Position numbers and translations under genes: made by a program
Shown: piece by piece, positions 439 to 59,221 of the stretch
Position numbering within the stretch: the stretch's first letter is position 1
Layout of the letters: the number at the start of each line of letters is the position of its first letter
The notes under the pieces: generated by a model
Told to the model about the DNA's origin: nothing
The model's input: only the letters and a program-made list of their open reading frames with translations
Databases searched by the model: none
Source: a phage
Reading direction: 5' to 3' (one strand)
Length of the DNA stretch: 64,000 nucleotides
Assembly (NCBI GenBank): GCA_019326865.1
Contig: GCA_019326865.1_4101.1

Positions 439-1257
439 ATGACAAAATTAAATGAATTCTTATCAAATGTAGCAGTTCTTGATACTGAAACCACTGGTGT
501 TGAAAGTGATGATGATATTATTGAATTTAGTATCTCATATCCATATACTTCACATGAAAACATTGATACTATTGATAACTATACATTGCGATATAAACCA
601 CTGAAAGATATTCCACCAGAAGCATCGGCTGTTCACTTTATCAGTACTGAGGATGTAGCTAATTGTGTTGGGTATAAAGATGATTTAGATAACATAGATG
701 CACTTATGGGATGCCGTAAGTATTTTGTTGGTCATAATGTACAATTTGACCGTAGAATGATGGTAGATAATGAATATAAATATCGTAACTCAGTTTCACA
801 GTACTTACTCGATGAAGATAAATGGATTTGTACTCTTCGTTTGGCTAAGAAAATGTTTGCAGAAGATACCGAATATAAAAACTTAACTCTAAGTTATTTG
901 TGGTATAAGTTTGGATGCCATCGAGATGTTCACAGACCTATTAATGCTCACGCGGCAAAAGATGATGTATTCATGTGTTATCAGGTTCTAATCAAATTGG
1001 TTGAAATTGCCATCGAACGTGGTCATATTGATTCCAATGGGGATATTGGTGAACAAATAGTAGCTTTTTGTAACACCCCAATGCGTTATCAATTCATGCC
1101 ATTTGGTAAACATAAAGGTGAGCCAATGAATACAGTACCATTGAATTACATTGAATGGATGATCACTAATAGTGACATTTTAGATGCAAGTAACCCTAAC
1201 TGTGATAAAGATTTAGTATATACATTTGAGTACGAATATAATACTCGAACTAATTAA
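439..1257 (+). CDS. DEDD-family 3'-5' exonuclease (DnaQ-like)
   Basis: N-terminal VLDTETTG Exo I motif, later H-x4-D region; 272 aa. Confidence 0.65.
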   Translation: MTKLNEFLSNVAVLDTETTGVESDDDIIEFSISYPYTSHENIDTIDNYTLRYKPLKDIPPEASAVHFISTEDVANCVGYKDDLDNIDALMGCRKYFVGHNVQFDRRMMVDNEYKYRNSVSQYLLDEDKWICTLRLAKKMFAEDTEYKNLTLSYLWYKFGCHRDVHRPINAHAAKDDVFMCYQVLIKLVEIAIERGHIDSNGDIGEQIVAFCNTPMRYQFMPFGKHKGEPMNTVPLNYIEWMITNSDILDASNPNCDKDLVYTFEYEYNTRTN

Positions 1258-2800: not shown

Positions 2801-3241
2801 ATGTGGAATAAAATGGAATTGAGATCTAGTATTGCTTTTGTCTGTGACCAAGAAACGTTAGAGGTTATGGATGTATTGTTGAATGATGATGGTATTATGG
2901 ATGACATGGTGTCTTCTCTTGACTATATTCCTGAACTAGAAACGGATGATACTAACGTATGGAGATGTAACATTGATGGCGATTCGTGGATTAATATCTA
3001 TGAATTACAAACACGAATTGATTCTAAGGTTGAATCATTGAAATATGATATCATCTATGCAAGTACTGATACAAAAACTTTTATTGATGTAGTAAGTCTA
3101 AGTGGTAATTTTGATTCATATCTTGATACTGATGTGGATAAAATTCAAGAGATGTGTGATACATACGGACTTGAATTTTATGGTGCAGAAGATTTGGATG
3201 ACGAAGACTATTACGATGATGAAGAAGAATCACAGTACTAA
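2801..3241 (+). CDS. hypothetical acidic protein
   Basis: 146-aa ORF, strongly acidic C-terminus (DDEDYYDDEEE). Confidence 0.55.
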   Translation: MWNKMELRSSIAFVCDQETLEVMDVLLNDDGIMDDMVSSLDYIPELETDDTNVWRCNIDGDSWINIYELQTRIDSKVESLKYDIIYASTDTKTFIDVVSLSGNFDSYLDTDVDKIQEMCDTYGLEFYGAEDLDDEDYYDDEEESQY

Positions 3242-3250
3242 GGAGACGAT

Positions 3251-3748
3251 ATGAACGTATTAACACCAGAAAATACATCTTTTGATATGGATTTAGTAAC
3301 AGAACATATCCCTGAAGAAATGTATTGTGTTTTGGATTTAAGTCCAAATGGTGAATCTGATTTTTATTTTAGACATATTCTAAACACCGTATCATTTAAT
3401 AGTATTAGTGCTGATCTTCAAATTGGTGAAAAGATTATTCAAGTGCCTTTAGGATGGCAAATTATGTTAGGGGATGAAGAAACTGGTATGGTTGAGATGT
3501 GCACAATTGAAAACATTCTCAACATGAAAGAACCAAAAGCTTTTGTTTATAATCCTATCCGTTCGATGTATCCTAAGTTTGAGCCAGTAAAAGTACTACG
3601 TGTATTTGCTTTAACAACTAAGTGGCAAATTCCAATGCTACCGAAAAAGAATTTACTCTGTGTGCCGTTACATAGTGGTGAAAATCCACCATGTGTGTAC
3701 TTTGCAGATGAAAATGAAAAAATTCAAGATTTGTATCTAGGAGTATAA
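3251..3748 (+). CDS. hypothetical protein
   Basis: 165-aa ORF tightly packed in + strand operon. Confidence 0.55.
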   Translation: MNVLTPENTSFDMDLVTEHIPEEMYCVLDLSPNGESDFYFRHILNTVSFNSISADLQIGEKIIQVPLGWQIMLGDEETGMVEMCTIENILNMKEPKAFVYNPIRSMYPKFEPVKVLRVFALTTKWQIPMLPKKNLLCVPLHSGENPPCVYFADENEKIQDLYLGV

Positions 3749-3752
3749 AATA

Positions 3753-4595
3753 GTGTTTGATTTCAGTGATATTAAAAATAAGTCAGTCGATGATGATAAA
3801 CCAACACAGCAGTCTTTTTCTATTGCTGAATTTCTAAAACATATTGACCGTGCTGATTATAAGTTCTATAATGACATGACAGAAAAAGAACGAAAAGAGT
3901 TTACACCTTATACTGTTTTGCGATGGGTAAGCTCTTTGGATGATTCTCTTCAAGTTACATATCCAAGTAGTAAAGTTGAAAAAGTATTTGGTAAATGGAA
4001 AGCTGGTGGTAAGGAAACATTAACTGAACTAGTAACTGAATTGAAGTCTTCTGGGACTAATGTTTCATCAGTAACCAAGTACTGTCACGGTGACTATGAT
4101 TGGCGTATTAAATTTGCGGTTCAATCTAAAGATGCTGCACAAAAATTAATATCATCAATGACAGAATTTGGTGTAACTGGTTCTGAAATTGTGTCATTAG
4201 TAGATACTGAAGTTGTAAAATATCAACTTATTATGCTGAATGACATGGTTAATGATGGTTTTTGGGATATGAAAGAACATCCAGAATTAGTATATCAACT
4301 TATGTGCTCAGTGCATGATATGATTGGTGGACAAGAAATGCCCCGTAATTGGTTGAATTTTTCTAAAAATTTCAAAAAAGCAAACAATGAACTATTTGAA
4401 TTAATTAAAAGTTCACAACCTGATACTATTTCTACTCAAATGAATGAAGATGAATATAAAATTGTTTTATTACAGTATGATAAAAAATCATTTGAAACAT
4501 TTCTTGACAATAATGGTTTACAAGATAATGAAAAGAAATCTATGATGAAATTGTTTAAAGATGAATGTAAAAAATATGGAAAAGAAATCAAGTAA
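3753..4595 (+). CDS. hypothetical protein
   Basis: 280-aa ORF, apparent GTG start. Confidence 0.5.
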   Translation: MFDFSDIKNKSVDDDKPTQQSFSIAEFLKHIDRADYKFYNDMTEKERKEFTPYTVLRWVSSLDDSLQVTYPSSKVEKVFGKWKAGGKETLTELVTELKSSGTNVSSVTKYCHGDYDWRIKFAVQSKDAAQKLISSMTEFGVTGSEIVSLVDTEVVKYQLIMLNDMVNDGFWDMKEHPELVYQLMCSVHDMIGGQEMPRNWLNFSKNFKKANNELFELIKSSQPDTISTQMNEDEYKIVLLQYDKKSFETFLDNNGLQDNEKKSMMKLFKDECKKYGKEIK

Positions 4596-5286
4596 TAAAG
4601 TATACACCTGTAAATTTTGTGACCGTGAATTTAAACGAGAAGAAACTGTCAGCACACATAAATGTATAAAACGTGACCGATACGAAGACCGCCAAAGCCG
4701 CCAGATGATGGAGGCTTTTCGTATATATATGCAATTTATGGAATTGAATAAGTTCCCATTTAAAAAAGGCGTGGAGCCTTTTATTGCTTTTATAAAATCG
4801 AAGTACTTTAATGATTTTTATAGTTTCGCAGAATACTATTTGAATAATAGAGATATTATAAATGTGGACGAGTTTGTAAAGAACTTGATTATCACTAACA
4901 GACCAATTACTGAATGGAGTACGTATAAAGCAAAAGATGAATGGATATTAAAAACTATTCGTGCAGAACATCCAAAAGAAGCTATTGCACGAAGTGTAAT
5001 ATCATTGGTTGAATGGGCTGAAAAGTTGAATGTACAATGGAACACCTTCTTTGAAAATGTAAGTTCTGCTCGTGCAATTGCATGGATAGAGAGTGGTAAA
5101 ATTTCACCGTGGATTATATGGCTTGCTCCTAAAAAAAGTACTAATAAGTTTTTTAAAAAACTATCAAACTCAGAAATTGAATATATACTTAAATACATCG
5201 ATCCAAGTTATTTTGAAATAAAAACTATAAAATACAAAAAGGATTGTGATGAAATTAAGATTATGCTATGTGAGGCAGGATTATGA
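4561..5286 (+). CDS. hypothetical protein with C2HC zinc-finger-like motif
   Basis: CKFCDREFKREETVSTHKC near N-terminus; 241 aa. Confidence 0.5.
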   Translation: MNVKNMEKKSSNKVYTCKFCDREFKREETVSTHKCIKRDRYEDRQSRQMMEAFRIYMQFMELNKFPFKKGVEPFIAFIKSKYFNDFYSFAEYYLNNRDIINVDEFVKNLIITNRPITEWSTYKAKDEWILKTIRAEHPKEAIARSVISLVEWAEKLNVQWNTFFENVSSARAIAWIESGKISPWIIWLAPKKSTNKFFKKLSNSEIEYILKYIDPSYFEIKTIKYKKDCDEIKIMLCEAGL

Positions 5287-5612
5287 ATGGAAAAAGTATA
5301 TATAACAAAATACCAGAAGGGTATGTACCTGTACCTAAAGAACAAAAATCAAAACAAATATCTCTACTTCGACAAGGATCTATTACTGAAATAACACTAG
5401 ATGGCAAAACATTTCAAGTTCACGATCCGGCTCGTGTTGAAAAAATAATTTCTTTAGTTGAAAGACATGAAGAGCGATTTTTTAGTTTGAGTCAGGAGTT
5501 AGCAAAGACAAAACAAAATTGTAAAATATTAGAGAAACAAATATCAACGTTAGTTAATACAGTTAAACAGTTACAGGAGCAAATAAAAAATGCAGGATTT
5601 GACCGATTCTAA
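5283..5612 (+). CDS. hypothetical protein
   Basis: 109-aa ORF, coiled-coil-like C-terminus; start overlaps previous stop. Confidence 0.5.
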   Translation: MNGKSIYNKIPEGYVPVPKEQKSKQISLLRQGSITEITLDGKTFQVHDPARVEKIISLVERHEERFFSLSQELAKTKQNCKILEKQISTLVNTVKQLQEQIKNAGFDRF

Positions 5613-6228
5613 ACATTATAGAAAGGCCCGAACTGATATTGACATTGACTTCAAGGATAGTAAAAGTGTAATTGCAAAACTTCCTTGTGTACGAAGTACT
5701 GAAAAAATTACGGAGGATGGTTTAATCCCCCATAATAGTGGTGTTCATTTTGACAATATACCAACTGATCCAATTACTGGTTTGGCTAGTATACAATATA
5801 AAGAAGCTGAAAGGTTAGGATATCAAAAAGTTGATATTCTTTCACAGTCAGCTTACATGTATGTTCGTGATAGAGAACATTTAAAAGAACTAATGAATCA
5901 GGAACCAAATTGGGATTTATTGTTAGAACCCGAAATAGTAGAGCATCTCTCGCAAATTAAAAAACATGTAACATTGTTAAATGTATGGAAGCCTAAATCA
6001 ATAGACGAACTGGCAATGTTTATTGCCATGATTCGCCCAGGAAAAAGGCAGTGCCAAAGTATGAACACATGGGACGAGGTAAAAGCCACCATATGGGACT
6101 ACAGTACTATTGGCACGGACCAAGCAGGAAATAAATTACGATATTTCAAAAAGCCACATGCTTATGCATATAGCTTAATGATTGTTGTACAACTAAATGC
6201 TTTAGTTGAACATCTTACTTCTTCTTAA
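5590..6228 (+). CDS. DnaE (Pol III alpha)-like palm/fingers fragment
   Basis: By-eye motifs matching DnaE in order: DIDIDF (cf PDFDVDF), HNSGV (cf HAGGV), YQKVDIL (cf KFDFLGL), AMIRPG (cf LFRPGP), KKPHAYAYSL (cf NKSHSAAYAL); only 212 aa. Confidence 0.45.
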   Translation: MQDLTDSKHYRKARTDIDIDFKDSKSVIAKLPCVRSTEKITEDGLIPHNSGVHFDNIPTDPITGLASIQYKEAERLGYQKVDILSQSAYMYVRDREHLKELMNQEPNWDLLLEPEIVEHLSQIKKHVTLLNVWKPKSIDELAMFIAMIRPGKRQCQSMNTWDEVKATIWDYSTIGTDQAGNKLRYFKKPHAYAYSLMIVVQLNALVEHLTSS

Positions 6229-6568
6229 GTGCCACATTACGACGTTTGATGCGTTTCTGTGGCAAATTGCTTAAAGAAACTACTGGACCACATACGAAAT
6301 TCACCGATTGTGTATCGAATCTCTGTGTGTACGGTTCAAATTTCTCCATCTCTTCTTGAAAGAATAGACAAACTGGAATGGTTCTATTACTTTGCCACCA
6401 CCAATCATGTGCTATACTTAACAATTCGTCTTGCATTGATTCATTCATATCATCGAAACAATAAAGAGTTGTATACTGTTTGCTTTTGATTTTGATGATA
6501 CCAATAAACGTTTTACCATCATACTGGATTACAGTAATGAATGGTGGGATAGTGTTATATTGATTCAT
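6215..6568 (-). CDS. hypothetical protein (minus strand)
   Basis: 117-aa ORF filling the gap between + genes; basic C-terminus; 3' end overlaps convergent + gene by 14 nt. Confidence 0.4.
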   Translation of the reverse strand: MNQYNTIPPFITVIQYDGKTFIGIIKIKSKQYTTLYCFDDMNESMQDELLSIAHDWWWQSNRTIPVCLFFQEEMEKFEPYTQRFDTQSVNFVCGPVVSLSNLPQKRIKRRNVALKKK

Positions 6569-6625
6569 ATTAGTTCCATAAATATTAGTATAAATTTATA
6601 CCTATTATTTATGGAAGGAAAAACT

Positions 6626-7603
6626 ATGGCTCATCACGGCGTGTTTATGTACCCTTATAACCAGGAAGTATCATTGGGCAATTTTAATATGCCATTTAGT
6701 AATGAAAAACTAACTATCTATCGAGGGGCAAATAATAATTTATCTTTTACTGTTCACAACGCTGATGGAAAATATACTTTATTGAAAGATAATGAATATC
6801 TTACATTTATGATTTTTGATGCACGAAATAATACTAAACTATTTGATGTTGTATTGGAAAAGCAAGAACCAAGTTGGTTATCAGAAAGTGGTCAAGCTCG
6901 TCAAACATTGGGAAATAAAAAGAAAGTATACTATGGATGTATTGTTCCAGCAGGAGTTATTCAAGATACCAGTCCTGGTTCCAAATATAGATGGAGCATT
7001 ACTAAAGTAACTATGGATGGTTCACTTATAGAACCAACACAATATCTATACACTGGAATGAACTTTGAGGCATCAGCGGAGCTAATAATTTCAGACCAAG
7101 CAGCCCCAGTATTTGTTCCTAGTACTGAAATATCTACAGACAAAAATCCAGCCTGGACATCAATAAAGCGTTTATATAATGAACCAATTGGTAATGGTAT
7201 GATAGGTGAGTATGATATACTAGCATCAACTCCACTTCCAGCACAAATGCAGTATGGGTTGGTTGATGGGCTAAGTAGCATTGCAATCTATTTTGATAAA
7301 TTCATTGGAAGAATACAGTTACAAGGATGTTTGTGTAATAATGTACCTAATGATAATGAAAATTATAAATGGTTTATAATCAAATTAGATGGAAAGGATT
7401 ATATTGAAAATGGGATTGATATTGATGGATTTCCAAAAGAGCTTGATGGTATTCAAGCATTTAATTTCAAAGGAAATTATATGTGGTTGCGAATCGTAGT
7501 AGCAATTCATCCTAAAAATGTTCCAGTACCATACGACTATGCTGCTGTGCGAAAAGTGTATAATCCTTTATTAACTGTACCTAAAATTTTGATTCGCAGG
7601 TGA
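6626..7603 (+). CDS. hypothetical protein
   Basis: Start moved to ATG at 6626 after GGAAGGA RBS; about 325 aa. Confidence 0.55.
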   Translation: MAHHGVFMYPYNQEVSLGNFNMPFSNEKLTIYRGANNNLSFTVHNADGKYTLLKDNEYLTFMIFDARNNTKLFDVVLEKQEPSWLSESGQARQTLGNKKKVYYGCIVPAGVIQDTSPGSKYRWSITKVTMDGSLIEPTQYLYTGMNFEASAELIISDQAAPVFVPSTEISTDKNPAWTSIKRLYNEPIGNGMIGEYDILASTPLPAQMQYGLVDGLSSIAIYFDKFIGRIQLQGCLCNNVPNDNENYKWFIIKLDGKDYIENGIDIDGFPKELDGIQAFNFKGNYMWLRIVVAIHPKNVPVPYDYAAVRKVYNPLLTVPKILIRR

Positions 7604-7658: not shown

Positions 7659-8714
7659 ATGAACGCTGTACAAAACATAATGGCACAAATAATGAATGAT
7701 CCAGTACCTTCAATTGGTACATGGTCACATCACAATTGTCCAGCTTGCGTGTTCAGAGGACATTCAAGGCCGGATACAAAGCACCGTGGTAATCATATGT
7801 TCAATGCAGATGGTTCCGTATCATATAACTGCTTTAACTGTAGTTTAAAAACGGGTTGGCAGCCTGGAAAATATATGAGCAAAGATATGGAGTCTTTGCT
7901 CATTTCTTTTGGTGCACAAGATAAAGAAATAGAATTAGTTAAGTTTTATATTAAAGAAATGGTTGATAGTGGAGATTACGCTACACAAGAAACGGTTGTA
8001 TCAAAATTATATGATAGAATAACTGTGCGTGATTTACCATCAAATGCTAAAACATTTTGGGAATGGGCTTCTTTACCAGAAGACAAAATTCCCCGAGAAT
8101 TTTTGAGTGTTTTGCATAACGTCAATGAACGAAATCCATACTTGTTAGATTTAGAATTATATTGGTCACCCAATAAAGAACATAAAATGTATGACAGGTT
8201 TATTATTCCTTATTTCATGAATGGAAAAATCATTGGATACACAGCAAGACACAAATTAAAAGATCCTGGAAGTACATACAGGTTTATAAATCAAGTAAGT
8301 ACTAATATACTATACAATTATGATTTATTAAAAGATGATAGAATAAAAACAATTTTAGTATGTGAGGGACCATTGGATGCTGCATTGATGGGTGGGGTAT
8401 CTGCAAATAACTTTAAACTATCAAATGTACAAATTGATGTATTAAAAGATGCACAACAAAAAGGTAAAAAAATAGTTATTGTTCCAGACCGAGACAAAGA
8501 TGGATTAATAACAATAGAACAAGCACTTGAAAATGGATTCAGTGTGTCGTTCCCAGACTTTGGTGCAGTAAGAGAAGGGAGCACTATACGTCACGTCAAA
8601 GATTTTGAAGAAGCTTGTTCACGATTTGGAAGATTGTTTTGCTTACAATTAATACACGATAGTATAGTAGATGAGCCATTTTATATCAAAGCTCAAACAG
8701 AAAAATGGATGTAA
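7659..8714 (+). CDS. DNA primase (zinc ribbon + TOPRIM)
   Basis: CPAC...CFNC zinc ribbon; TOPRIM motifs LVCEGPLDA and IVPDRDKDG; 351 aa, directly upstream of helicase. Confidence 0.75.
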   Translation: MNAVQNIMAQIMNDPVPSIGTWSHHNCPACVFRGHSRPDTKHRGNHMFNADGSVSYNCFNCSLKTGWQPGKYMSKDMESLLISFGAQDKEIELVKFYIKEMVDSGDYATQETVVSKLYDRITVRDLPSNAKTFWEWASLPEDKIPREFLSVLHNVNERNPYLLDLELYWSPNKEHKMYDRFIIPYFMNGKIIGYTARHKLKDPGSTYRFINQVSTNILYNYDLLKDDRIKTILVCEGPLDAALMGGVSANNFKLSNVQIDVLKDAQQKGKKIVIVPDRDKDGLITIEQALENGFSVSFPDFGAVREGSTIRHVKDFEEACSRFGRLFCLQLIHDSIVDEPFYIKAQTEKWM

Positions 8715-8736: not shown

Positions 8737-10257
8737 ATGATTCAAAGCACAATGGATGTGAAACAATATGGGATTAATGCACAACAATACTTATTATCTC
8801 AGATTTTCAGTAATCCTGATTTATATGTACGTTGTAAAAATATCCTTAAACCTGAATATTTTGATAAAACATTTCATGAAAGTATTAAGTACGTTCATGA
8901 TTATGCTGCAAAATATAGTTCATCACCGACTTTAAAAGATATTGAAGTTAAAGGTGGTTATCAATACGATCAATATGAAGTTCAAGAATTACATAAACAA
9001 TCAGTACTGGATACATGTGGTGAATTTTGTCGACACAAAGCATTAGCATTAGCTGTGGAAAAGGGAATGGAACTTGTCCATCAGAAAAAATATGGTGGGA
9101 TAGAAGAACTAATTCGTGAAGCAATGCTGGTAACTGTACAGAATGAGTTGGGCTTGGACATTTTTGAAAATCCAGAAGATACTATTCGTTCACTAAGTTC
9201 AATGCAAGGGTCATTTAAGAGTGGATGGGAAACACTTGATTACAAACTTTTCGGTGGTTTTGGGCGTAGAGAGTTAGAGATTTTCGCGGCTGCATCAGGT
9301 GGTGGTAAATCAGTAGTGCTGCAAAATTTAGCAGTTAACTTTGCTAAAGCTGGAATGAATGGTGCATATATCTCACTAGAACTAGCTGAAGAGTTGGTTG
9401 CGGTTCGTATCTATGGTATGATGACTGAATCGAAACTCAGTAACGTAAAAAATGAAGCTGAAAAGATTGGGTTTGCTGTTAAAGTTGAAGGTAAAAACAG
9501 TGGTATGTTGCGTATTAAACGCTTACCTGAATCTGTGACAACAACTGACGATATCGAAAGTTATCTACGTGAATTACAAATTAAGATGGAAATCAAACTT
9601 GATTATGTATGTGTGGACTATTTGGACCTATTAACTTCTAATCGTCTTGGTCCAAATGATAAATCCAATACATTTACTAAAGATAAATTTGTATCAGAAG
9701 AATTACGTGCTCTTGCATCCAAAATGGATTTGACTGTATTCACTGCATCTCAGTTTAACCGTAGTGGTATGGATGAAGATAAGAAAAGTCAAAGTCAGAT
9801 TGCTGGTGGTATTTCAAAAATTTATACTGCGGATAACGTAATTTATATTGAAGCAAAAAAAGAAACTGGGGAATTATGGTTTGATTTTCAAAAAACACGT
9901 AACAGTAGTGCAGTAGGTTCTCGCTTACGTATGTCATATGATATTGACTCATTGCGAGTTCTTGATCACGCAACTACAGTACAACAAATGGAAACAGAAG
10001 GCAACGGGTTCCGTCACAGTGGTGTTTCTAAGATTGGTGGAGGAAATATGGCATTACCACCTAGTACAATGCAAACATTGCGTCATACGCTTTCTGGTGC
10101 ATCAAATCCATTATCTACACAACCAAACAAACAAGTATTACTAAATACTGAGAGTGCTCCTAACACCACAACACAAAATGAATTACAGCCCCCGCAGCCA
10201 CATGCAGGTTCTGAACGTGCTCACGCAATGAAGCAATGGTTAAATCAAAGGAAATAA
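8737..10257 (+). CDS. DnaB-family replicative DNA helicase
   Basis: Walker A AAASGGGKS, Walker B VCVDYLDLL, TASQFNRS motif; 506 aa. Confidence 0.75.
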   Translation: MIQSTMDVKQYGINAQQYLLSQIFSNPDLYVRCKNILKPEYFDKTFHESIKYVHDYAAKYSSSPTLKDIEVKGGYQYDQYEVQELHKQSVLDTCGEFCRHKALALAVEKGMELVHQKKYGGIEELIREAMLVTVQNELGLDIFENPEDTIRSLSSMQGSFKSGWETLDYKLFGGFGRRELEIFAAASGGGKSVVLQNLAVNFAKAGMNGAYISLELAEELVAVRIYGMMTESKLSNVKNEAEKIGFAVKVEGKNSGMLRIKRLPESVTTTDDIESYLRELQIKMEIKLDYVCVDYLDLLTSNRLGPNDKSNTFTKDKFVSEELRALASKMDLTVFTASQFNRSGMDEDKKSQSQIAGGISKIYTADNVIYIEAKKETGELWFDFQKTRNSSAVGSRLRMSYDIDSLRVLDHATTVQQMETEGNGFRHSGVSKIGGGNMALPPSTMQTLRHTLSGASNPLSTQPNKQVLLNTESAPNTTTQNELQPPQPHAGSERAHAMKQWLNQRK

Positions 10258-12307: not shown

Positions 12308-12981
12308 ATTACGAATATGATCAACAATCAGTCAATCAGATGGCTGATTTGTTAAGTGGTCTTAATGATATTGAAGCTGGTGAGACACATGATGCGGCTG
12401 GTGTACCATATAAAGCTAGTGGTGATATTGGTGCAATGACTGCTATTTTAACTTCATTAAATGAAGCGGGTATGGATTATGGTATTGAACCTGAACAGAC
12501 ACATCCGAAGGTTGTGTCATATAACGCACCATTTAACGAACACATGAATGGACAACAACATGTTCAGCCTGTGATGCAACGTTCACCTTCTAAACCGAAA
12601 ACCAATTGGAGTTTAGTAGAAGAAAAGGTACAAGGCACGAAATCTACTAAAGTTTATAGTATTAAGTGTAACCATAGTTCACAAATTATCATGAATAATA
12701 TTATGATGTATGAAGCAGCACTTACTTTAGTTAACCTTCTTAACGAAGGGCGAATGTTGACAGATGCTAAAGTTCTTGGTATAATTAGTTCGGGTTTGCA
12801 ATACACAAATGTAATAAGCGAAGCATTAAAAGCAGCCCATAAACGCCAACGTGTACTTAATGAATCAAAGTATGATGAAGCAAAAGATTTAGATATAATC
12901 ATTGCAGAAAAGAAAGCAGAAGCGTATAAATTAAAAGAGCGTGTATTAAACTTTCTTAAAAATGAAGGGTACATCACTTGA
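12304..12981 (+). CDS. hypothetical protein
   Basis: 225-aa ORF. Confidence 0.5.
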   Translation: MNYEYDQQSVNQMADLLSGLNDIEAGETHDAAGVPYKASGDIGAMTAILTSLNEAGMDYGIEPEQTHPKVVSYNAPFNEHMNGQQHVQPVMQRSPSKPKTNWSLVEEKVQGTKSTKVYSIKCNHSSQIIMNNIMMYEAALTLVNLLNEGRMLTDAKVLGIISSGLQYTNVISEALKAAHKRQRVLNESKYDEAKDLDIIIAEKKAEAYKLKERVLNFLKNEGYIT

Positions 12982-14729
12982 TTATAGATGAATTGAAGAA
13001 ATTCTTAAAAAGCAAAAACAAAAAAACATGGGTTAAGTTGGTAAGCAATAATGAAGTGTATTTTAAATATGTTCGTGAATTATTCCCAACTAAACCCATG
13101 AATGAAGCATTGTATCTTATAATGAACGATATGGTATGTGCACCATCTGCCCCATGTGGCTCTGAATGTAAATTTATTAATGGTTCATATGATAAGTATT
13201 GTTCTAAGCCAACAAAACCAAACAAAAATCGTGATAATGGTTTTTGTGTAGTATGCAATGAGCATTGGAAGAACGCCAAACTCAAAAATACTAAACAAAA
13301 ATGCCTTGATGCTTATGGAGTCGAATATCATTGGCAAAGAAATGATGTGAAGGACAAAATAAAAAGTACTAATATGAAACGATATGGCGTTGAGCACAAT
13401 TCGCATATCGAACATGTTCTTGAAAAAAGAAAGGAAACCTTCATTAAAAGATATGGTGTTGAATCACCTTTAGCATCTGTTGAAATTCGTGATAAGATAA
13501 AAGCAACAAACATTGAAAAATATGGTGTTGAAAATTATGGAAGTACTGATGAATGTATAGAAAAACGAAATAAAACAATGATGGATTTATATGGTGTTAA
13601 TAATGCACAACATGTAACGAAATTTTTAAATGAATCAAAGGTTACGAAAGCTAAAATTAGGTATGATAAAATTTTATCTATTATTAACCCTTCATATAAA
13701 GAACTTTTTGAATATGATGACTTGATAGATTCAACTAATGAAAGTAAACTTCCGTATTATTGTGAAATACACAAAGGGCTGTTTTATAGTAATTATAAAT
13801 ATGGTATAGTTTGTAGTGTTTGTAATCCACCCGTGTATAGTTCCATACAAAATGAAATAAAGAATTTTGTATCAACATTGACTGAATGTGACATTATTAT
13901 GAATGATCGAAGTAATGGGTATGAATATGATATATACATCCCTGAACTCCAGATAGCAATAGAAGTTAATGGAATGTATTGGCACAAAAGTGATATGGTT
14001 GATAAGTATTATCATAGGACAAAAACAATAAATTCGATTGAACGTGGAATTAGATTGATACATATATTTGAAGATGAATGGTACAGTAAACAGGAAATTA
14101 TTAAAAATAGATTAATGAACGTTTTTCAATGTTCTAGTAAGATTTATGCCAGAAAATGTATTGTTAAAAAAATTAACACAAATATTTGTTATGATTTCTT
14201 GAACACTAATCACATACAAGGATATACTAAAACTGGAATAAACTATGGTTTGTTTTATAAACAAGAACTGATTGCAGTAATGACGTTCAGTAAAAGTCGA
14301 TATGATAAAAAATTTGAATATGAGCTAATACGATATTGCTCACGTGGAACGGTTGTTGGTGGGGCTGGTAAATTATTGTCTGCATTTGAGCGTGATTACA
14401 AACCATTGTCGTTGATGAGCTACGCAGACTTGAATTGGGGTTCTGGGCAGTTATACATATCTCTTAATTTTGAAAATTTGGGATATACCGAACCCAAATA
14501 TTTTTATTATGATCCAAAAACAAAACAGCGTTTTTCTAGACAAAAATTTAGAAAACATAAATTGATTGAAATGGGCCACGACTCATCTAAAACTGAAGAA
14601 GAGATATGCTTAGGTGAAATTGGATTGTATAAAATATACGATTCTGGCAATTGCAAATTTGCTAAATATTATTACAACATAAACATTACAGGAGATATTG
14701 AAAAATGTCCAAATCGTACAAAAAACTAA
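12978..14729 (+). CDS. putative homing-endonuclease-like protein (tandem repeats + nuclease motif)
   Basis: Cys-rich N-terminus; five ~22-aa repeats with [KR]YGVE core; later DIYIPELQIAIEVNGMYWH resembling Vsr/DUF559-type endonuclease motif; 583 aa. Confidence 0.45.
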   Translation: MIIDELKKFLKSKNKKTWVKLVSNNEVYFKYVRELFPTKPMNEALYLIMNDMVCAPSAPCGSECKFINGSYDKYCSKPTKPNKNRDNGFCVVCNEHWKNAKLKNTKQKCLDAYGVEYHWQRNDVKDKIKSTNMKRYGVEHNSHIEHVLEKRKETFIKRYGVESPLASVEIRDKIKATNIEKYGVENYGSTDECIEKRNKTMMDLYGVNNAQHVTKFLNESKVTKAKIRYDKILSIINPSYKELFEYDDLIDSTNESKLPYYCEIHKGLFYSNYKYGIVCSVCNPPVYSSIQNEIKNFVSTLTECDIIMNDRSNGYEYDIYIPELQIAIEVNGMYWHKSDMVDKYYHRTKTINSIERGIRLIHIFEDEWYSKQEIIKNRLMNVFQCSSKIYARKCIVKKINTNICYDFLNTNHIQGYTKTGINYGLFYKQELIAVMTFSKSRYDKKFEYELIRYCSRGTVVGGAGKLLSAFERDYKPLSLMSYADLNWGSGQLYISLNFENLGYTEPKYFYYDPKTKQRFSRQKFRKHKLIEMGHDSSKTEEEICLGEIGLYKIYDSGNCKFAKYYYNINITGDIEKCPNRTKN

Positions 14730-36385: not shown

Positions 36386-38779
36386 ATGACAACTTTTACC
36401 CCACGCTGGGACATAAAAGCCGATGCTCGATATATACAAGAAGGACAAGACATTCTTGTGCGTTTGAGTATCAATAAAAAAAGCACAACGGATGATAGAT
36501 ATGTATTAAATGAAGAAGAATACTTAGAGATGATTCTTAATATACAATGCTTGGATAGTTCAGGTGCTGTATTTGATCCAGAACCACATTATACTTTTTA
36601 TGTTGGTAATGATGAAAATAGTTTTGTTCCGATTTCTGATGGAACTACTGGTAATAAATTGGTAAATGGTAAGCATAAATGTAAAATTAGCAAAAAAGAA
36701 TTTAACTTATCAGCAAACACTAATAGTGAAGATGTATATTTTATAAAAATCCACTGCAAAAATGATGGAACCTATAACAATACAGAAGTTATTAATTTTT
36801 ATTTGCAAGCAGTAAATGTTATGTATTATGGTAATATCTCACCAAGTGGTGTATTAGGTTCAACCGATGTTACATTAACATATGATAGTCAGGAAGTTTG
36901 GGTTACGCCTGGAGTTGAAATTGGTGATGATAATAAGCTTTATTGTATTGGTGATGTTGAATACGGTTCAAACAGCACACTATTTGTACAAGGATTTGGT
37001 AGAAGACGACCTTTTATATTAGGTACTGACATTACGGATGATATTACACCCCGCGTATTTTTCCCAGCTTATAGATTGCTTGATATGGATATATCAGAAG
37101 TCCCCCAGAAGCATATAACAAAGAATTATGCTGTATTCAAACCAGCACATTCAACATGGCCGATTTCTGGTATAAACAAAGAAGTAAAAGTTAACATTCA
37201 AAATAAGAATGGAAGTCTTATTGATACAGGTATGATTTTTAACCCCAATGGACAATTACTTCAATCATTTTTGTATGACTCTGATGCATGTGATGCATAT
37301 TTTAAAGTTGAGATCGTTGATATATTAAGCACATATTTAGAGGAAAGTGAAAGGTTTGCAATCAATCAACGATATAAAGCATATCAAATGTGGGTATGTC
37401 CTGAAGATATAGATACTATCTATTCTGTTTCAGACAAGCCATTACCCAATCATTTATATCAATTAAAAGATAATGTTGTGTATCCATATGTAATTAGTGG
37501 TGAATATGACAACGGATCACTTAAACCTGTATATGATAGTAGTGATTGGATCGATTTGGGATATTATGACCCTTCTCTTGGTGAGAATATTATTGGTATG
37601 CAAAAAATATTCAGAGTATTGGTTAACGCCGAAGAAGGAAATAATATAAACTTCATCACTGATAGTGACTTAGGGATTATTCATGTCGGTGAATATTTTG
37701 GTAATAGTACTTATCCTAAACTAGAAACTGATAGTACAAGTCAGGTTTCTTATATGTTAGATGGTGGTGATGATATCAGAAAATATGGAATTGACTTGAC
37801 ACCGGATGGGTATCTTATTGGAACAGCATATGCCAAAAGTATTGATTTTAGTCAAAATGATGATATTAAATTATCATTTTATGTTAAAGTATTCAGTACT
37901 GAAGGTGGTGAAGCAAGGAAATTATTCAACCTTAAAATTGTGAGAGGATTTGGACAGAATTATTTGAGTGCACATGTATTACCTTCTGTTGCATTTGAGA
38001 GAGAGTGGTTTAAATGTATTAGTACTTCATCATTCACAAACCAACTTTTTTTCCGTCAATCTGACAACAGATATGGACTTCAAAAAGTACCGAAGATGTT
38101 ATTAAAAGAAAACTTCCTAAGTCAAAATTATCCATATACAAATATTACTGATATTAAAAAAGTATTACGAAAGATTATAGTTAATCCAAATGGAACTACG
38201 ATTCCTAATGGAAAATTTAAAATGGTTATAGGTAATTATAAATTATTATCAGTACTTGACAATCAAGGCAATTTGCAATATGATTTATTATATAGAGAAG
38301 TTTTGCCCGAAGGTTCACTGGTATCAGTATCAAAAAATCCTCGTCAGTATACACAAATAGACAACGGACAACTTGGTGAATTGTTTGGCCTCCGACAAAA
38401 CATATTTCAAGTTATTGGCGAAGATACAACGAACTTGGTCAAAGATCCAACCGATTTACAAAACCGTGGTTTATATGTTGATGCAATACCAAGTGTAAGT
38501 GAAGAAATGCTCGATACTGTTCCTAGGTTCATGAATCATCCATATATTGAAAATGGATTACAGAAAAAATTCATGCCTATAATTCCAGTTGCTTTTTGTC
38601 AACCAGGAAAAGGTGAAGCGTTTTTCAACACTTTACTCCAGAATAATGAACATGGTACAATGGTAGGTCTAGAATTTGAAATCACATCTGTTGAATTCGG
38701 ATACTTTTCACATGAATCAGTTAATTATGTGCCTGATACATTTGTGATTACACTACCAAATAATAACATAGGAGGTTGA
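36386..38779 (+). CDS. large hypothetical protein
   Basis: About 798 aa; start at 36386 after GGAGA RBS (36359 possible); no recognisable motifs. Confidence 0.55.
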   Translation: MTTFTPRWDIKADARYIQEGQDILVRLSINKKSTTDDRYVLNEEEYLEMILNIQCLDSSGAVFDPEPHYTFYVGNDENSFVPISDGTTGNKLVNGKHKCKISKKEFNLSANTNSEDVYFIKIHCKNDGTYNNTEVINFYLQAVNVMYYGNISPSGVLGSTDVTLTYDSQEVWVTPGVEIGDDNKLYCIGDVEYGSNSTLFVQGFGRRRPFILGTDITDDITPRVFFPAYRLLDMDISEVPQKHITKNYAVFKPAHSTWPISGINKEVKVNIQNKNGSLIDTGMIFNPNGQLLQSFLYDSDACDAYFKVEIVDILSTYLEESERFAINQRYKAYQMWVCPEDIDTIYSVSDKPLPNHLYQLKDNVVYPYVISGEYDNGSLKPVYDSSDWIDLGYYDPSLGENIIGMQKIFRVLVNAEEGNNINFITDSDLGIIHVGEYFGNSTYPKLETDSTSQVSYMLDGGDDIRKYGIDLTPDGYLIGTAYAKSIDFSQNDDIKLSFYVKVFSTEGGEARKLFNLKIVRGFGQNYLSAHVLPSVAFEREWFKCISTSSFTNQLFFRQSDNRYGLQKVPKMLLKENFLSQNYPYTNITDIKKVLRKIIVNPNGTTIPNGKFKMVIGNYKLLSVLDNQGNLQYDLLYREVLPEGSLVSVSKNPRQYTQIDNGQLGELFGLRQNIFQVIGEDTTNLVKDPTDLQNRGLYVDAIPSVSEEMLDTVPRFMNHPYIENGLQKKFMPIIPVAFCQPGKGEAFFNTLLQNNEHGTMVGLEFEITSVEFGYFSHESVNYVPDTFVITLPNNNIGG

Positions 38780-38780
38780 C

Positions 38781-39092
38781 ATGTTTAATCCTTTCTTTGA
38801 CCCGTCAGGGATGACCGAAAAGGAACTACAGTTGAAAATTAATGAACAATCAATGCGTTTAACAGCAGCACGTGCTGCTGGGATGAGCAATATGATTATT
38901 GGTAATATGCAAACTGTGTTAAATCAATGTTATGCTGAACTAGAACTTCGTCAAGGACAAAAAGAGAAAAATGTTTATGATGATGAAGGTCCATGTATAT
39001 TTGACATGGATTCCTATCTAACAGATAATGAAGAGGCCCAAAAGAAGAAAAATGAAAGTACAAGGAAACAGATTTATAAGTCCCAATGGTGA
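38781..39092 (+). CDS. hypothetical protein
   Basis: 103-aa ORF; 3' end overlaps next ORF by 65 nt in another frame. Confidence 0.45.
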   Translation: MFNPFFDPSGMTEKELQLKINEQSMRLTAARAAGMSNMIIGNMQTVLNQCYAELELRQGQKEKNVYDDEGPCIFDMDSYLTDNEEAQKKKNESTRKQIYKSQW

Positions 39093-39570
39093 TGTGAAAT
39101 GTAATCTTAATGCAGTTGTTTATGCAATCAACTGTGGTGTAGATATCCAGTACTTGCAATTACAGGAAATTGATGAACCTGAAAGGTTAAAATTCAATGA
39201 TAACTGTAAAAAATTTGGCTTAGAACAACGTATGCTAGATTATACAATAGAACATGATAAAAATCATGAACTTTGGCGTTATGATCCTGTATACGATAAT
39301 ATAAATCTTCGTGATTATTTTTTAGAAAAGTGTACGTCAGATGAAGCACGAAAACGTGTTGAGTATGAACTTGATTTATATGAATATTATAATATGACTA
39401 AGCTATTGAGATGTATGATATGGCTAGTCGATTATATGGAAGAAAATAAGATCTTTTGGGGTCTTGGGCGTGGAAGCTCTGTTGCATCGTATTGTCTGTT
39501 TTTGATTGGTCTACATATGGTAGATTCATTGAAATATGATCTTGATGTTAATGAATTTTTGAAATGGTAG
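39028..39570 (+). CDS. DnaE (Pol III alpha)-like fragment carrying the GRGS motif
   Basis: C-terminal GLGRGSSVASYCLFLIGLHMVDSLKYDLDVNEFL parallels DnaE [34 protein letters not shown]; preceding YELDLYEYYNM resembles DnaE. Start uncertain. Confidence 0.45.
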   Translation: MKRPKRRKMKVQGNRFISPNGDVKCNLNAVVYAINCGVDIQYLQLQEIDEPERLKFNDNCKKFGLEQRMLDYTIEHDKNHELWRYDPVYDNINLRDYFLEKCTSDEARKRVEYELDLYEYYNMTKLLRCMIWLVDYMEENKIFWGLGRGSSVASYCLFLIGLHMVDSLKYDLDVNEFLKW

Positions 39571-39579
39571 AAAAACATG

Positions 39580-39588
39580 TGATATAAT
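39580..39588 (+). promoter_or_regulatory. extended -10 promoter element (TGaTATAAT)
   Basis: tgtgatataatgt, same 13-mer as at 2767. Confidence 0.4.
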
Positions 39589-39636
39589 GTTTGTTACAGA
39601 AGCATTATATCACACATACAATAAAAGGATTTTTAT

Positions 39637-39981
39637 ATGTCTAAACACACAACTTATCGTGGTACAACTATTGATATGGATATGCTCAAGTACCAAAACC
39701 AATACCAAGTTGCATTAGGTAATGCAAACCTAAATGCTCGCGGTGATAAAATTGGTTCCGGTGGTACAATTGTTAAAACTCGTGAAGAGTTACTTCAAGA
39801 AAAAGAACGAGAAATGCAAATTCCTGATTATATTCCTGAGCATCAACTTCATAGCACTGAGCATAGTACTGACGATGTATGGGACGATGAAAGTTTTGAG
39901 GTTAAGCCCGAAGAACAAGAAGTTAAAGTTTCTGAAGAAAAGAAAGCACCACGCCGAGCTAGAATCAAAGATCAGGAGTAA
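39637..39981 (+). CDS. hypothetical protein
   Basis: 114 aa, charged C-terminus; good RBS. Confidence 0.5.
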   Translation: MSKHTTYRGTTIDMDMLKYQNQYQVALGNANLNARGDKIGSGGTIVKTREELLQEKEREMQIPDYIPEHQLHSTEHSTDDVWDDESFEVKPEEQEVKVSEEKKAPRRARIKDQE

Positions 39982-39989
39982 TATATTAA

Positions 39990-40316
39990 ATGACTAAAAA
40001 AGTAATGACAGCATGTAAAGGTAAAGTTTTAGTAACTGAACTTGAACATGGTGAACGTAAAACAGCAGGTGGTATTGTTTTAACAAACGATGATGGTAAA
40101 ATTCGAGGTATTCGCTCCCGCTGGGCTAGAGTTTATTCTGTCGGTGAGGACATTACCGATATCAAAGAAGGACAATGGATTTTAATCGATCATGGACGAT
40201 GGTCCAGAACGATTGAAGTTGATGGTATCGAATTGAACTTAGTTGATTACCCTGCTGCTGTTAGTTTGGTGTCAGATGAAGACCCCCGAACTAAAATGCT
40301 GACATTTGGACGTTAA
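39990..40316 (+). CDS. groES: GroES-like co-chaperonin (T4 gp31-type)
   Basis: KTAGGIVL, GIRSRWARVYSVGED and WILIDHGRWS fit GroES pattern; 108 aa. Confidence 0.6.
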   Translation: MTKKVMTACKGKVLVTELEHGERKTAGGIVLTNDDGKIRGIRSRWARVYSVGEDITDIKEGQWILIDHGRWSRTIEVDGIELNLVDYPAAVSLVSDEDPRTKMLTFGR

Positions 40317-40359
40317 TATAATATAATTAAAGCTCGGAATAATTTCTGGGCTTTTTATT

Positions 40360-40641
40360 TTGGACACTTTTATGATAACGGATGATGGAAAATTTAGTTT
40401 TAAAGATGTAACATTGATATCAAAAAACGGAAGATTCATGTTTGAAGATAGAAAAAATACCAAATATGTGTATGAAGTTTCCCATGATATGTTTAAAGTT
40501 TTATTAGTTGCTGCTGCCCAAGCTGAAAGTTCTGGGATTAAAAATAAAGCAAACTCTTTTAATTTTTTATTTAATCAACTAGAAATGACAGAAGAACTTT
40601 TTACGGCTTTATTGTATAATTCAGCCGATTGGATTCTATAA
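40360..40641 (+). CDS. hypothetical protein
   Basis: 93-aa ORF. Confidence 0.45.
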   Translation: MDTFMITDDGKFSFKDVTLISKNGRFMFEDRKNTKYVYEVSHDMFKVLLVAAAQAESSGIKNKANSFNFLFNQLEMTEELFTALLYNSADWIL

Positions 40642-40665
40642 CACGTACACAGAAGGAAATATAAA

Positions 40666-57325: not shown

Positions 57326-59221
57326 ATGAAACCTATCCGAGTACTATCTCTTTTTAATGGGATGAGTGTAGGATACATGGCATTAAAAGATGCTGGTATC
57401 CCTGTTGAAAAATATTATTCATCCGAAATTGACAAATTTGCTATAGCTGAATCCCAAGCTAACTTCCCCGATATCATCCAATTGGGTGATGTAACTAGAT
57501 GGAAAGAATGGGATATCGAATGGGACAAGATAGATCTACTGATGGGTGGTTTTCCATGCTTCCCAGCAGGAACTATGATAATGACAAATAAAGGTCATAA
57601 AGATATAAAAGATATAAAAATTGGTGATATGGTTCTTACACACACTGGACAGTACCAAAAAGTATTGAGTACTTGTGTAAAACAAGCACCAACTAGAATT
57701 ATATCAGGTCAGGGCCATTTACCTATTGAATGTACCGATAATCACCCATTTTATTCGAGAGTTTTGGGTAAAAAATGGAATAATGCCAAACGTCAATATG
57801 ATAGAATAGCAAGCGATGCAGAATGGGTATATGCATCAGAATTAACACCAAATCATTTACTATGTAATGTAAAATCATCGTATGTTCGTGAATCATCATT
57901 GAGAGATGAAAAATTTTGGTATTTTATGGGTAGATTTGCAGGAGATGGGTGGGTATCAAAAGTTAAACGTCAAAAAAGAAAAAATAGTTATGTATATAAA
58001 GTGTTAATGTGTTGTGCACATGATGAATTTGATGAATTGGTTGAATGTTTTGATGGTTTAAAAATGAATTATAATTATACCAAAGAACGCACTTCATATA
58101 AATTTTATATTACATCAAAAACTTTACTTGAATTCTGTGAAAAGATGGGGAAAGGTGCTTCTAATAAAATTGTTCATCCTGAATTATGGTCCGAATGTGT
58201 AGAAAATAAAAAAGCTTTTCTTGAAGGGTACATATCGGCTGACGGTCATTACTATGATGGTAAATGGCACATTACATCAACATCATCAAACATGATATTG
58301 GGTATACAGCAATTAGTCATGGACATTTATGGAAGGCATGTGAATATACATAAAGTCACACCGTCACCCACTAAGATTATTGAGGGACGTATAGTAAATC
58401 AAAAACCGTGGTACAGAATAGAATTCACTGAAAATCCACTAAAACATGAAAATGCTTTTTATGATGATGATACGTATGCTTGGGTAAACGGTGTCAAAAA
58501 AAGTATACCTACAAATGAAATAAAAGACGTATATTCATTTGAAGTTGCAGTAGATAACACATATACGGCGAACAATATTGTAGTTCATAACTGTCAAGCG
58601 TGGTCAGTTGCTGGGAAACAAGGCGGTGTGAATGACCCTCGTGGTATGTTATTCCATACAATGGTTGATATTTACCAGCACATAAAAAGTCTCAATCCAG
58701 ACTTGAAAGTACTGTTCGAGAATGTTAAAATGAAAGAAGATTTCAAGCAATACATTAATAGTGTTCTTGAGATGACACCAGTACTGATAAATTCCCAGCA
58801 TTATACGCCTCACTTCAGGCAGAGATATTACTGGTACAGTACTGATAAACTTTTTATACCACCTGCATTATCCAATGCACCTAAACTTCAAGATATTATT
58901 GAAGATGGTTGGTACACTGACAGAACCGCTTCGTACTGTATAGATGCTAACTATTTTAAGGGTGGTGATTGTAACCAGTACTTTAATAAATCAAGAAGAC
59001 AAATTGTTTTCAAAGAACCTGATATCGATAGGGATTTCCTTCTTGAACATGGTAAGCGAAATGTGGACTATCGTCATTTAACAGTACAAGAGTGTTGCAT
59101 GTTGCAAGGAATTGATGTAAACTACTTCAAAGTTAGTAGTTCAACACAAGCATACAAAATGCTTGGGAATGGATGGACTATGCCAGTTATATCACACTTA
59201 CTACGAGATATATTCTTTTGA
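57326..59221 (+). CDS. DNA (cytosine-5)-methyltransferase interrupted by an in-frame intein
   Basis: N-extein: motif I LFNGMSVG, E-x-D, GGFP; C-extein: CQAWSVAGK (completes motif IV), ENV, QRYYW, MLGNGWTMPVISHL. Exteins total about 286 aa. Confidence 0.75.
   Translation: MKPIRVLSLFNGMSVGYMALKDAGIPVEKYYSSEIDKFAIAESQANFPDIIQLGDVTRWKEWDIEWDKIDLLMGGFPCFPAGTMIMTNKGHKDIKDIKIGDMVLTHTGQYQKVLSTCVKQAPTRIISGQGHLPIECTDNHPFYSRVLGKKWNNAKRQYDRIASDAEWVYASELTPNHLLCNVKSSYVRESSLRDEKFWYFMGRFAGDGWVSKVKRQKRKNSYVYKVLMCCAHDEFDELVECFDGLKMNYNYTKERTSYKFYITSKTLLEFCEKMGKGASNKIVHPELWSECVENKKAFLEGYISADGHYYDGKWHITSTSSNMILGIQQLVMDIYGRHVNIHKVTPSPTKIIEGRIVNQKPWYRIEFTENPLKHENAFYDDDTYAWVNGVKKSIPTNEIKDVYSFEVAVDNTYTANNIVVHNCQAWSVAGKQGGVNDPRGMLFHTMVDIYQHIKSLNPDLKVLFENVKMKEDFKQYINSVLEMTPVLINSQHYTPHFRQRYYWYSTDKLFIPPALSNAPKLQDIIEDGWYTDRTASYCIDANYFKGGDCNQYFNKSRRQIVFKEPDIDRDFLLEHGKRNVDYRHLTVQECCMLQGIDVNYFKVSSSTQAYKMLGNGWTMPVISHLLRDIFF
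57557..58591 (+). mobile_element. intein with LAGLIDADG homing-endonuclease domain (345 aa)
   Basis: Starts CFPAGTMIM, block B TDNHPF, two LAGLIDADG-like motifs (FMGRFAGDGWV, FLEGYISADGHY), ends NNIVVHN before +1 Cys. Confidence 0.7.

Follow-up and report, generated by a model that had tools for sequence, protein, structure and literature searches.

Two distant genes encode the putative halves of a split minimal C-family DNA polymerase in an Asteriusvirus jumbo coliphage

Introduction

Bacterial C-family replicases are large, multidomain enzymes. In the DnaE and PolC proteins of known structure (Escherichia coli, 2HNH/5FKU; Taq, 2HPI/3E0D; Geobacillus PolC, 3F2B), the catalytic subunit is a single unbroken chain of ~1100-1450 amino acids (aa). 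Some cyanobacteria (Synechocystis, Nostoc) encode it in two distant genes, dnaE-n and dnaE-c, with a break after residue ~774, and the halves of a split intein splice the exteins into the full-length protein. A different arrangement is found in a 64,000-nucleotide (nt) stretch of phage DNA (GenBank assembly GCA_019326865.1, contig GCA_019326865.1_4101.1; the whole stretch is called the window), in which two open reading frames (ORFs), ORF1 (39052..39570, + strand) and ORF2 (5590..6228, + strand), resemble consecutive parts of DnaE. A phage-specific 'split minimal DNA polymerase III' (Pol III) has already been reported in group 2.2 jumbo phages by Iyer, Anantharaman, Krishnan, Burroughs and Aravind (2021, Viruses 13:63, PMC7824862, section 3.4.1, Fig. 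3b), consisting of an N-terminal nucleoside triphosphate (NTP)-binding protein and a C-terminal Mg2+/template-binding protein, which are encoded by distant genes, lack the other Pol III domains and occur alongside a family B polymerase.

Judged by that section and figure, the pair in the window is the same system and one more member of it, from Asteriusvirus: it consists of two stand-alone proteins (172 and 212 aa), whose distant genes co-occur in the same genomes. The split genes and their interpretation were thus known from comparative genomics in 2021, and the window adds a member and not a discovery. The present analysis adds a map of residues onto DnaE of E. coli, a structure-based confirmation of the C-terminal half, dN/dS (nonsynonymous to synonymous substitution) ratios, the gene neighbourhood in 80 contigs, and rare unsplit relatives.

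The phage pair shares with DnaE and PolC the palm fold, the GS motif, the Asp triad and the RPG and NKSH motifs of the fingers. By contrast, its 384 aa are divided between two chains, the break falling after the GS helix region and before the DxD strand, and it lacks the PHP domain, thumb, distal fingers, β-clamp-binding motif, HhH, OB fold and τ-binding tail. As in the cyanobacterial split DnaE, a C-family catalytic subunit derives from two distant genes, but the phage pair is a minimal enzyme with no intein sequence, and it is interrupted within the palm. Precedents for replicative polymerase parts that are separately encoded and joined non-covalently are the family B polymerase of the phiKZ-like group 1 jumbo phages, as covered by Iyer et al. 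(PMC7824862), and the archaeal split PolB, although these have an RRM-type palm and other break points. A version of ~380 residues, broken inside the active-site domain, bears on the origin of the C family. Should it prove active, it would represent the family's minimal catalytic unit; it would also serve as a model for the build-up or reduction of complex replicases and as a natural scaffold for split enzymes. A further question is why a second polymerase core, of bacterial type, is maintained under strong selection in jumbo phages whose T4-like replisome is complete.

Two halves of a C-family polymerase core

ORF1 and ORF2 are best explained as the two halves of one minimal C-family core, split inside its Pol-β-like palm, a reading to which we assign a probability of roughly 0.7. 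Direct observations behind it are the homology and colinear alignment of each half with DnaE residues ~300-780, the invariance of every catalytic and motif residue, and the independence of the two genes, each with its own start and stop codons; conservation of the split, purifying selection on both genes and their replication context, described below, are observed as well.

ORF1, the N-terminal half of the split minimal Pol III α, consists of a family-specific N-terminal region followed by a palm segment with the GS/NTP-binding motif. It matches the Pfam family DNA_pol3_alpha (PF07733) with E 1.5e-9 and 38.3 bits (gathering cut-off 23.9 bits), residues 100-179 of the 180-aa frame described below corresponding to profile positions 16-95. 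BLASTP aligns it with residues 320-392 of E. coli DnaE (the reference gene from NC_000913; E 2e-5), and the hidden Markov model (HMM) of the family gives the identical placement. The GLGRGS motif (39460..39477, + strand; ORF1 residues 137-142) corresponds to GPGRGS 359-364 of E. coli DnaE, the GS motif of the Pol-β-like nucleotidyltransferase palm. Among 26 diverse homologues, with identity down to 31%, the pattern W-G-x-G-R-G-S-S-V-x-S-Y is invariant, including G137, G139, R140, G141, S142 and S143. The break point is the C-terminal NEFLKW with its stop codon (39550..39570, + strand), equivalent to DnaE 389-394 in both hhalign and BLAST alignments; NEFL corresponds to ERFL 389-392, ORF1 ends two residues past EFL, and in these homologues the C-terminus always lies 0-25 residues from EFLK. 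The initial annotation, which described a DnaE-like fragment ending at the GRGS...ERFL motif, is borne out in this respect. The first ~90 residues of ORF1 have no confident DnaE counterpart. In Escherichia phage CMSTMSU (MH494197, 229549..229962), the ORF1 homologue was matched in two places (68% identity over 81% of its length), and this copy may be frameshifted or poorly assembled.

The longest ORF1 reading frame spans 39028..39570 (+ strand, 180 aa) and terminates in GLGRGSSVASYCLFLIGLHMVDSLKYDLDVNEFLKW and a stop codon. The frame and the end at 39570 were correctly given at the outset, but the start was not: translation almost certainly begins at the second ATG, 39052 (172 aa), because the gene callers' homologues (~172 aa), the PHROG profile (residue 9 of the longer frame) and the family alignment all begin there, and because RaK2 has AAC in place of the 39028 ATG while AAGAAGAAAAATGAAAGTA around 39052 is conserved. 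With this start, the overlap with the preceding gene in another frame is 41 nt and not the 65 nt first reported; the identical 41-nt overlap is found in RaK2. The preceding gene (38781..39092, + strand) belongs to a function-unknown family (phrog_15348, full-length match, E 2e-53) and is context only, not part of the enzyme. A σ70-like site near consensus (TTGACA-17-GATAAT, 11/12) lies inside it at 39001..39029 (+ strand), its -10 element overlapping the 39028 ATG. This site is not conserved in RaK2, and was dropped as an argument for excluding that ATG.

ORF2, the C-terminal half (212 aa, beginning MQDLTDSKHYRKARTDIDIDF), contains the strand with the catalytic Asp residues, completes the palm sheet and adds a reduced fingers module, and its ATG is preceded at 12 nt by a conserved AGGAG. 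Residue invariance was computed over 24 homologues. The motif TDIDIDF (5632..5652, + strand) corresponds to PDFDVDF 400-406 of E. coli DnaE, with D16/D18/D20 equivalent to D401/D403/D405 and invariant; BLAST, HMM and hhalign alignments all equate D16 and D18 with the catalytic D401 and D403. As originally noted, ORF2 therefore opens with the equivalent of PDFDVDF some 33 kb from ORF1 (33.4 kb by measurement). Downstream, PHNSG (H48/G51) corresponds to KHAGG 510-514, and QKVDILS (5824..5844, + strand) to VKFDFLG 552-558 in the hhalign columns, D82 being the third catalytic Asp (D555) and K80 the equivalent of K553, both invariant. In the fingers, MIRPGK (6028..6045, + strand) corresponds to LFRPGP 637-642 (IRPG 148-151 to FRPG 638-641), with I148, R149 and P150 invariant and HMM and hhalign in agreement, and FKKPHAYAYS (6145..6174, + strand) corresponds to FNKSHSAAYA 756-765 (residues 186-194 to 756-764), with K187, H190 and Y194 invariant. 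A weak match to the fingers family PF17657 is present in 11/24 ORF2 family members, and structural comparison confirmed the C-terminal half, recovering the three-dimensional palm and fingers fold of a C-family core.

Joining the two sequences extends the match. The ORF1-ORF2 concatenate scores 45.2 bits against PF07733, against 38.3 bits for ORF1 alone, and the match crosses the junction into DIDIDF as far as ORF2 residue 25. In BLASTP, its alignment with E. coli DnaE spans GRGS through DFDVDF, with a single gap of 9 residues. Profile-profile comparison of the fused family with a DnaE alignment (hhalign) gave a probability of 98.6% with E 7e-16 over 331 columns, placing query positions 39-382 on E. 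coli DnaE 224-779 in strictly colinear order. Both alignments were small: the query comprised the concatenates from the window, RaK2 and PA5oct together with the natural fusions, and the DnaE alignment was built from the proteins of E. coli and Streptomyces phage Phettuccine plus a metagenomic DnaE. Together with a single-gene relative (P0302, see below), these results uphold the initial proposal of consecutive pieces of a reduced C-family core; the profile searches it envisaged place ORF1 above the PF07733 cut-off and the fused family with DnaE.

The hhalign mapping also defines what is missing. ORF2 residues 21-47 (27 residues) replace E. coli 404-510, so that the thumb is lost, and ~100 residues inside the fingers and everything past ~779 are absent, including the C-terminal clamp-binding, HhH and OB modules. 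No PHP domain match was obtained for ORF1 or ORF2. The absence of PHP and C-terminal domains from the window, as first stated, agrees with a tblastn search of the whole window with E. coli DnaE, which found ORF1 only, at a sensitivity that is limited.

Source phage and annotation of the two genes

Positions 38000-41000 of the window are 96.7% identical to Escherichia phage UE-S1 and ~89.5% identical to 121Q, PBECO4, phAPEC6 and other Asteriusvirus jumbo coliphages. Judged from these identities, the window is Asteriusvirus DNA (121Q/PBECO4/UE-S1-like), and thus belongs to a Rak2-like, T4-related jumbo myovirus. Both genes are labelled as DNA polymerase in GenBank and PHROGs. The ORF1 homologue is a 'DNA polymerase III alpha subunit' in several Asteriusvirus records, and full-length matches link ORF1 to phrog_11127 (E 2e-86) and ORF2 to phrog_11778 (E 2e-108), both 'DNA polymerase' families.

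Conservation of the split across phages

The C-terminal half was found by tblastn in 96 phage records and the N-terminal half in 117. The latter include 17 Streptomyces phages; those listed are labelled DnaE-like Pol III α, and Phettuccine, the example that was inspected, has a full-length protein. Counts of the N- and C-terminal halves are equal by genus: Escherichia 34/34, Pseudomonas 11/11, Salmonella 8/8, Erwinia 8/8, Xanthomonas 4/4 and Yersinia 4/4. The distance between the halves is 31-35 kb in Rak2-like phages, including dozens of independently assembled complete genomes, and elsewhere 44 kb (PA5oct-like), 182 kb (Atu_ph07) or 14 kb with reversed gene order (Xoo-sp13 and RAS14). A further set of 80 viral loci from IMG/VR (37-99% identity, ~1.09 Mb of flanking sequence) contains the C-terminal half in its own frame of 189-221 aa in 80/80 cases, and no N-terminal half was found in the flanks, which extend for at most 10 kb to either side and less on shorter contigs. 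Relative to RaK2, ORF1 has a dN/dS of 0.085 and ORF2 one of 0.126, at dS ~1.6. Both halves are under purifying selection, and the split is real, old and maintained.

In UE-S1, the apparent distance between the halves is 41.7 kb, as opposed to 33.4 kb in the window, because it includes an 8.3-kb terminal repeat (349779..358076; L003 31780..40077) that starts ~330 nt downstream of the ORF2 homologue. From ~6560 onward, the window reads straight through the UE-S1 repeat boundary, like a circularly permuted or concatemer-type representation.

Unsplit relatives

A profile search of 1.84 billion representative sequences returned 504 relatives. Among the 150 matches listed, 148 are stand-alone C-terminal halves of at most 233 aa, some of them shorter partial proteins, and two contain both halves in one gene. 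These two unsplit proteins, P0302 (375 aa; L008 1066..2193) and P0378 (336 aa; L012 3171..4181), each come from a short metagenomic contig. An uninterrupted alignment across the junction links P0302 to the concatenate from the window (34% identity over 383 columns, E 1e-55). The halves of the fused genes are closest to stand-alone halves (for example, 48% identity between the P0302 C-terminal half and P0286), a similarity compatible both with secondary fusion and with survival of an ancestral form. P0378 overlaps the stop codon of a 552-aa gene (L012 1516..3174) with a PF03090 'Replicase' domain (Rep/primase-type, E 2.5e-13) and a helix-turn-helix.

In section 3.4.1 and Fig. 3b of Iyer et al. 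(PMC7824862), the minimal Pol III is described solely as split and phage-specific, and unsplit forms and a link to Rep are not mentioned there. The unsplit relatives fit poorly with that description. A bolder proposal, which is speculative and rather doubtful at present, is that the two chains, ~384 aa in total, form an active C-family DNA polymerase smaller than any other known, joined across an intermolecular palm sheet, and that the single-gene versions (336-375 aa) are autonomous mini-replicases of small mobile elements. If this were true, a palm-fingers core devoid of PHP, thumb and clamp-binding modules would suffice for templated synthesis, and bacterial replicases would either have started from such a minimal core or have been drastically reduced to it.

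Proposed mechanism and alternative explanations

In the proposed mechanism, ORF1 would contribute the strand, GS loop and helix that hold the incoming nucleotide by its triphosphate, and ORF2 would bring in the DxD strand and the third catalytic Asp, together with the remainder of the palm sheet and a shortened fingers module. The two separately made proteins may assemble non-covalently into one active site through an intermolecular β-sheet. The heterodimer would then act as an auxiliary DNA polymerase beside the family B replicase, for example by extending primers or synthesizing the lagging strand, by filling gaps, or by taking part in DNA synthesis that depends on recombination. Without PHP, thumb, clamp-binding, HhH and OB domains, the complex is probably poorly processive on its own or dependent on partner proteins.

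Several results weigh against a split polymerase. Loss of the thumb (E. coli 433-510), PHP, clamp-binding and OB modules means that templated, processive synthesis is not guaranteed, and the separate polymerases described below (the 1001-aa gene of UE-S1 and gp43 of CBB) mean that the split enzyme is not needed as the main replicase. In a plain sequence search, the Pfam fingers match of ORF2 is below threshold (E 0.043). Single-sequence phmmer searches of each ORF against PDB sequences returned noise only, and the family HMMs of both ORFs likewise found no match among PDB sequences. The empty PDB profile-sequence searches are attributed to the divergence of the families, for which profile-profile and structure comparison are needed. 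ORF1 modelled alone is poorly predicted (pLDDT, a per-residue confidence score, 70.5; ~60 in the GS segment), and a fold search with this model, which is too uncertain, gave no match. Low confidence in the isolated GS segment would fit a need for the ORF2 partner. No biochemical or structural study of any family member was found in the literature.

In one alternative, the pair is derived from Pol III α but is not a templated DNA polymerase, being instead a terminal transferase, a synthase or degrader of nucleotide signals, or a non-catalytic replisome adaptor. The missing thumb, PHP, clamp-binding, HhH and OB modules and the separate DNA polymerases of UE-S1 and CBB are in its favour, and the Pol-β fold is common to many non-polymerase nucleotidyltransferases. 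On the other hand, the RPG and FKKxH motifs of the fingers (E. coli 637-642 and 756-765) are still present and do not vary among homologues, ORF2 lies within a primase-helicase module in 60-68 of the 80 loci, and the fused relative P0378 adjoins a Rep/primase-type replicase, while the invariance of the catalytic Asp residues speaks against a purely structural role. A non-polymerase function is considered unlikely, though it deserves to be taken seriously.

It is very improbable that the halves are joined into one polypeptide by a split intein or by RNA trans-splicing, the latter having been raised in the initial annotation. Split-intein DnaE genes are known in cyanobacteria, and the same phage has an intein in another gene (57326..59221). 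However, neither ORF1 nor ORF2 has a Hint/intein match. Intein halves need ~100-120 and ~35 residues, whereas only 2 residues of ORF1 and ~13-15 of ORF2 (before DxDxD) lie outside the DnaE-colinear alignment, which leaves no room for them. Both genes also have their own start and stop codons and are tightly packed, ORF2 overlapping its upstream gene by 23 nt and ORF1 lying between the 41-nt overlap and a 66-nt gap on its 3' side, and no Rfam intron or other RNA family was detected anywhere in the window. Covalent joining was therefore rejected, leaving a non-covalent heterodimer as the remaining reading.

Decay of a complete dnaE captured from a host, with ORF1 and ORF2 as pseudogene fragments, would account for the absence of most DnaE domains, and the 172-aa ORF1 counterpart was indeed called a 'truncated' Pol III α in the CBB paper (PMC5259590). 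This explanation is effectively refuted by a dN/dS of ~0.1 at near-saturated dS and by catalytic residues that are invariant down to ~31-40% identity, and it is at odds with hundreds of intact homologues of constant length and with synteny kept across phage families. Finally, an assembly or annotation artefact of one contiguous gene can be dismissed as the source of the separation. The contiguous relatives P0302 and P0378, which come from metagenomes, are distant (at most 34% identical), so that the refuting case named in the initial annotation, a contiguous relative that exposes such an artefact, did not arise. The two-gene layout recurs in ~96 independently sequenced phage genomes, including the complete Rak2-like genomes and, with other spacings, PA5oct, Atu_ph07 and Xoo-sp13/RAS14, and in 80/80 viral loci, and each half has its own conserved neighbours.

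Gene neighbourhood and other replication genes

Across the 80 viral loci, the neighbours of ORF2 are conserved in 60-79 cases, with strand and order preserved. A UvsW-like helicase, which has Pfam helicase domains and takes its name from the 121Q annotation, is near ORF2 in 61/80 loci. It is accompanied by a primase (7659..8714, + strand; phrog_47; 68/80), by a DnaB/gp41-like helicase (8737..10257, + strand; PF03796 DnaB_C; 60/80), and by four genes of no assigned function: 3251..3748 (+ strand; 67/80), 3753..4595 (+ strand; 63/80), 4561..5286 (+ strand; 76/80), which starts with a Cys/His-rich, possibly zinc-binding motif, and the small opposite-strand gene 6215..6568 (- strand; 79/80). These four have no Pfam match, and in PHROGs match function-unknown families only. 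They are candidate accessory subunits that may provide the minimal polymerase, or else the helicase-primase, with thumb or DNA-binding functions. ORF1 precedes a GroES-like gene and an RFC-type clamp loader both in the window and in PA5oct, which retains the local synteny around ORF2 as well. ORF2 thus belongs to a conserved module together with the UvsW helicase, the primase and the replicative helicase, ORF1 lies beside the clamp loader, and the comparison of synteny in related phages shows that each half keeps its own surroundings.

A DnaQ/RNase T-type 3'-5' exonuclease (439..1257, + strand; PF00929, E 5e-15) is encoded 4.3 kb upstream of ORF2. Its label in 121Q, 'DNA polymerase III', made it a candidate third piece of DnaE, which was rejected since it is an exonuclease and not an α fragment. 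It is linked to ORF2 solely in the Rak2-like subgroup (6/80 loci). In E. coli, the ε subunit binds the PHP domain, which is absent here. The product could nevertheless be a proofreader for the minimal polymerase, and its counterpart in CBB was called an ε-like subunit (PMC5259590).

No T4-type family B polymerase is encoded inside the window. UE-S1, the closest relative, carries a 1001-aa gene 19 kb upstream of its ORF2 homologue, labelled just 'DNA polymerase', a label that does not give the polymerase family, and the Rak2-like phage CBB has a homologue of the T4 family B polymerase gp43 (PMC5259590).

Possible interruptions of other genes and a putative homing endonuclease

The gene 57326..59221 (+ strand) encodes a 631-aa C-5 cytosine DNA methyltransferase, in which PF00145 matches in three stretches are interrupted by Hint (residues 77-123) and LAGLIDADG (residues 295-344) domains; by its domain order, it looks like an intein-containing Dcm-like gene. 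Within the replication and nucleotide-metabolism region, 12978..14729 (+ strand) encodes a 583-aa DUF7487 protein with a weak REase_MTES_1575 match, annotated in UE-S1 as a 'putative homing endonuclease'.

In Bacillus phage Edson (PV796108, L010), a full-size DnaE-like gene appears to be broken into three ORFs (2960..4384, 5015..6064 and 6340..7302) separated by gaps of ~630 nt and ~275 nt. No Rfam intron family was detected in this gene at the gathering threshold. The first break falls directly after the catalytic MPDVDTD, and the third piece starts just before NRSHAACYAY, which suggests introns or other insertions at conserved sites.

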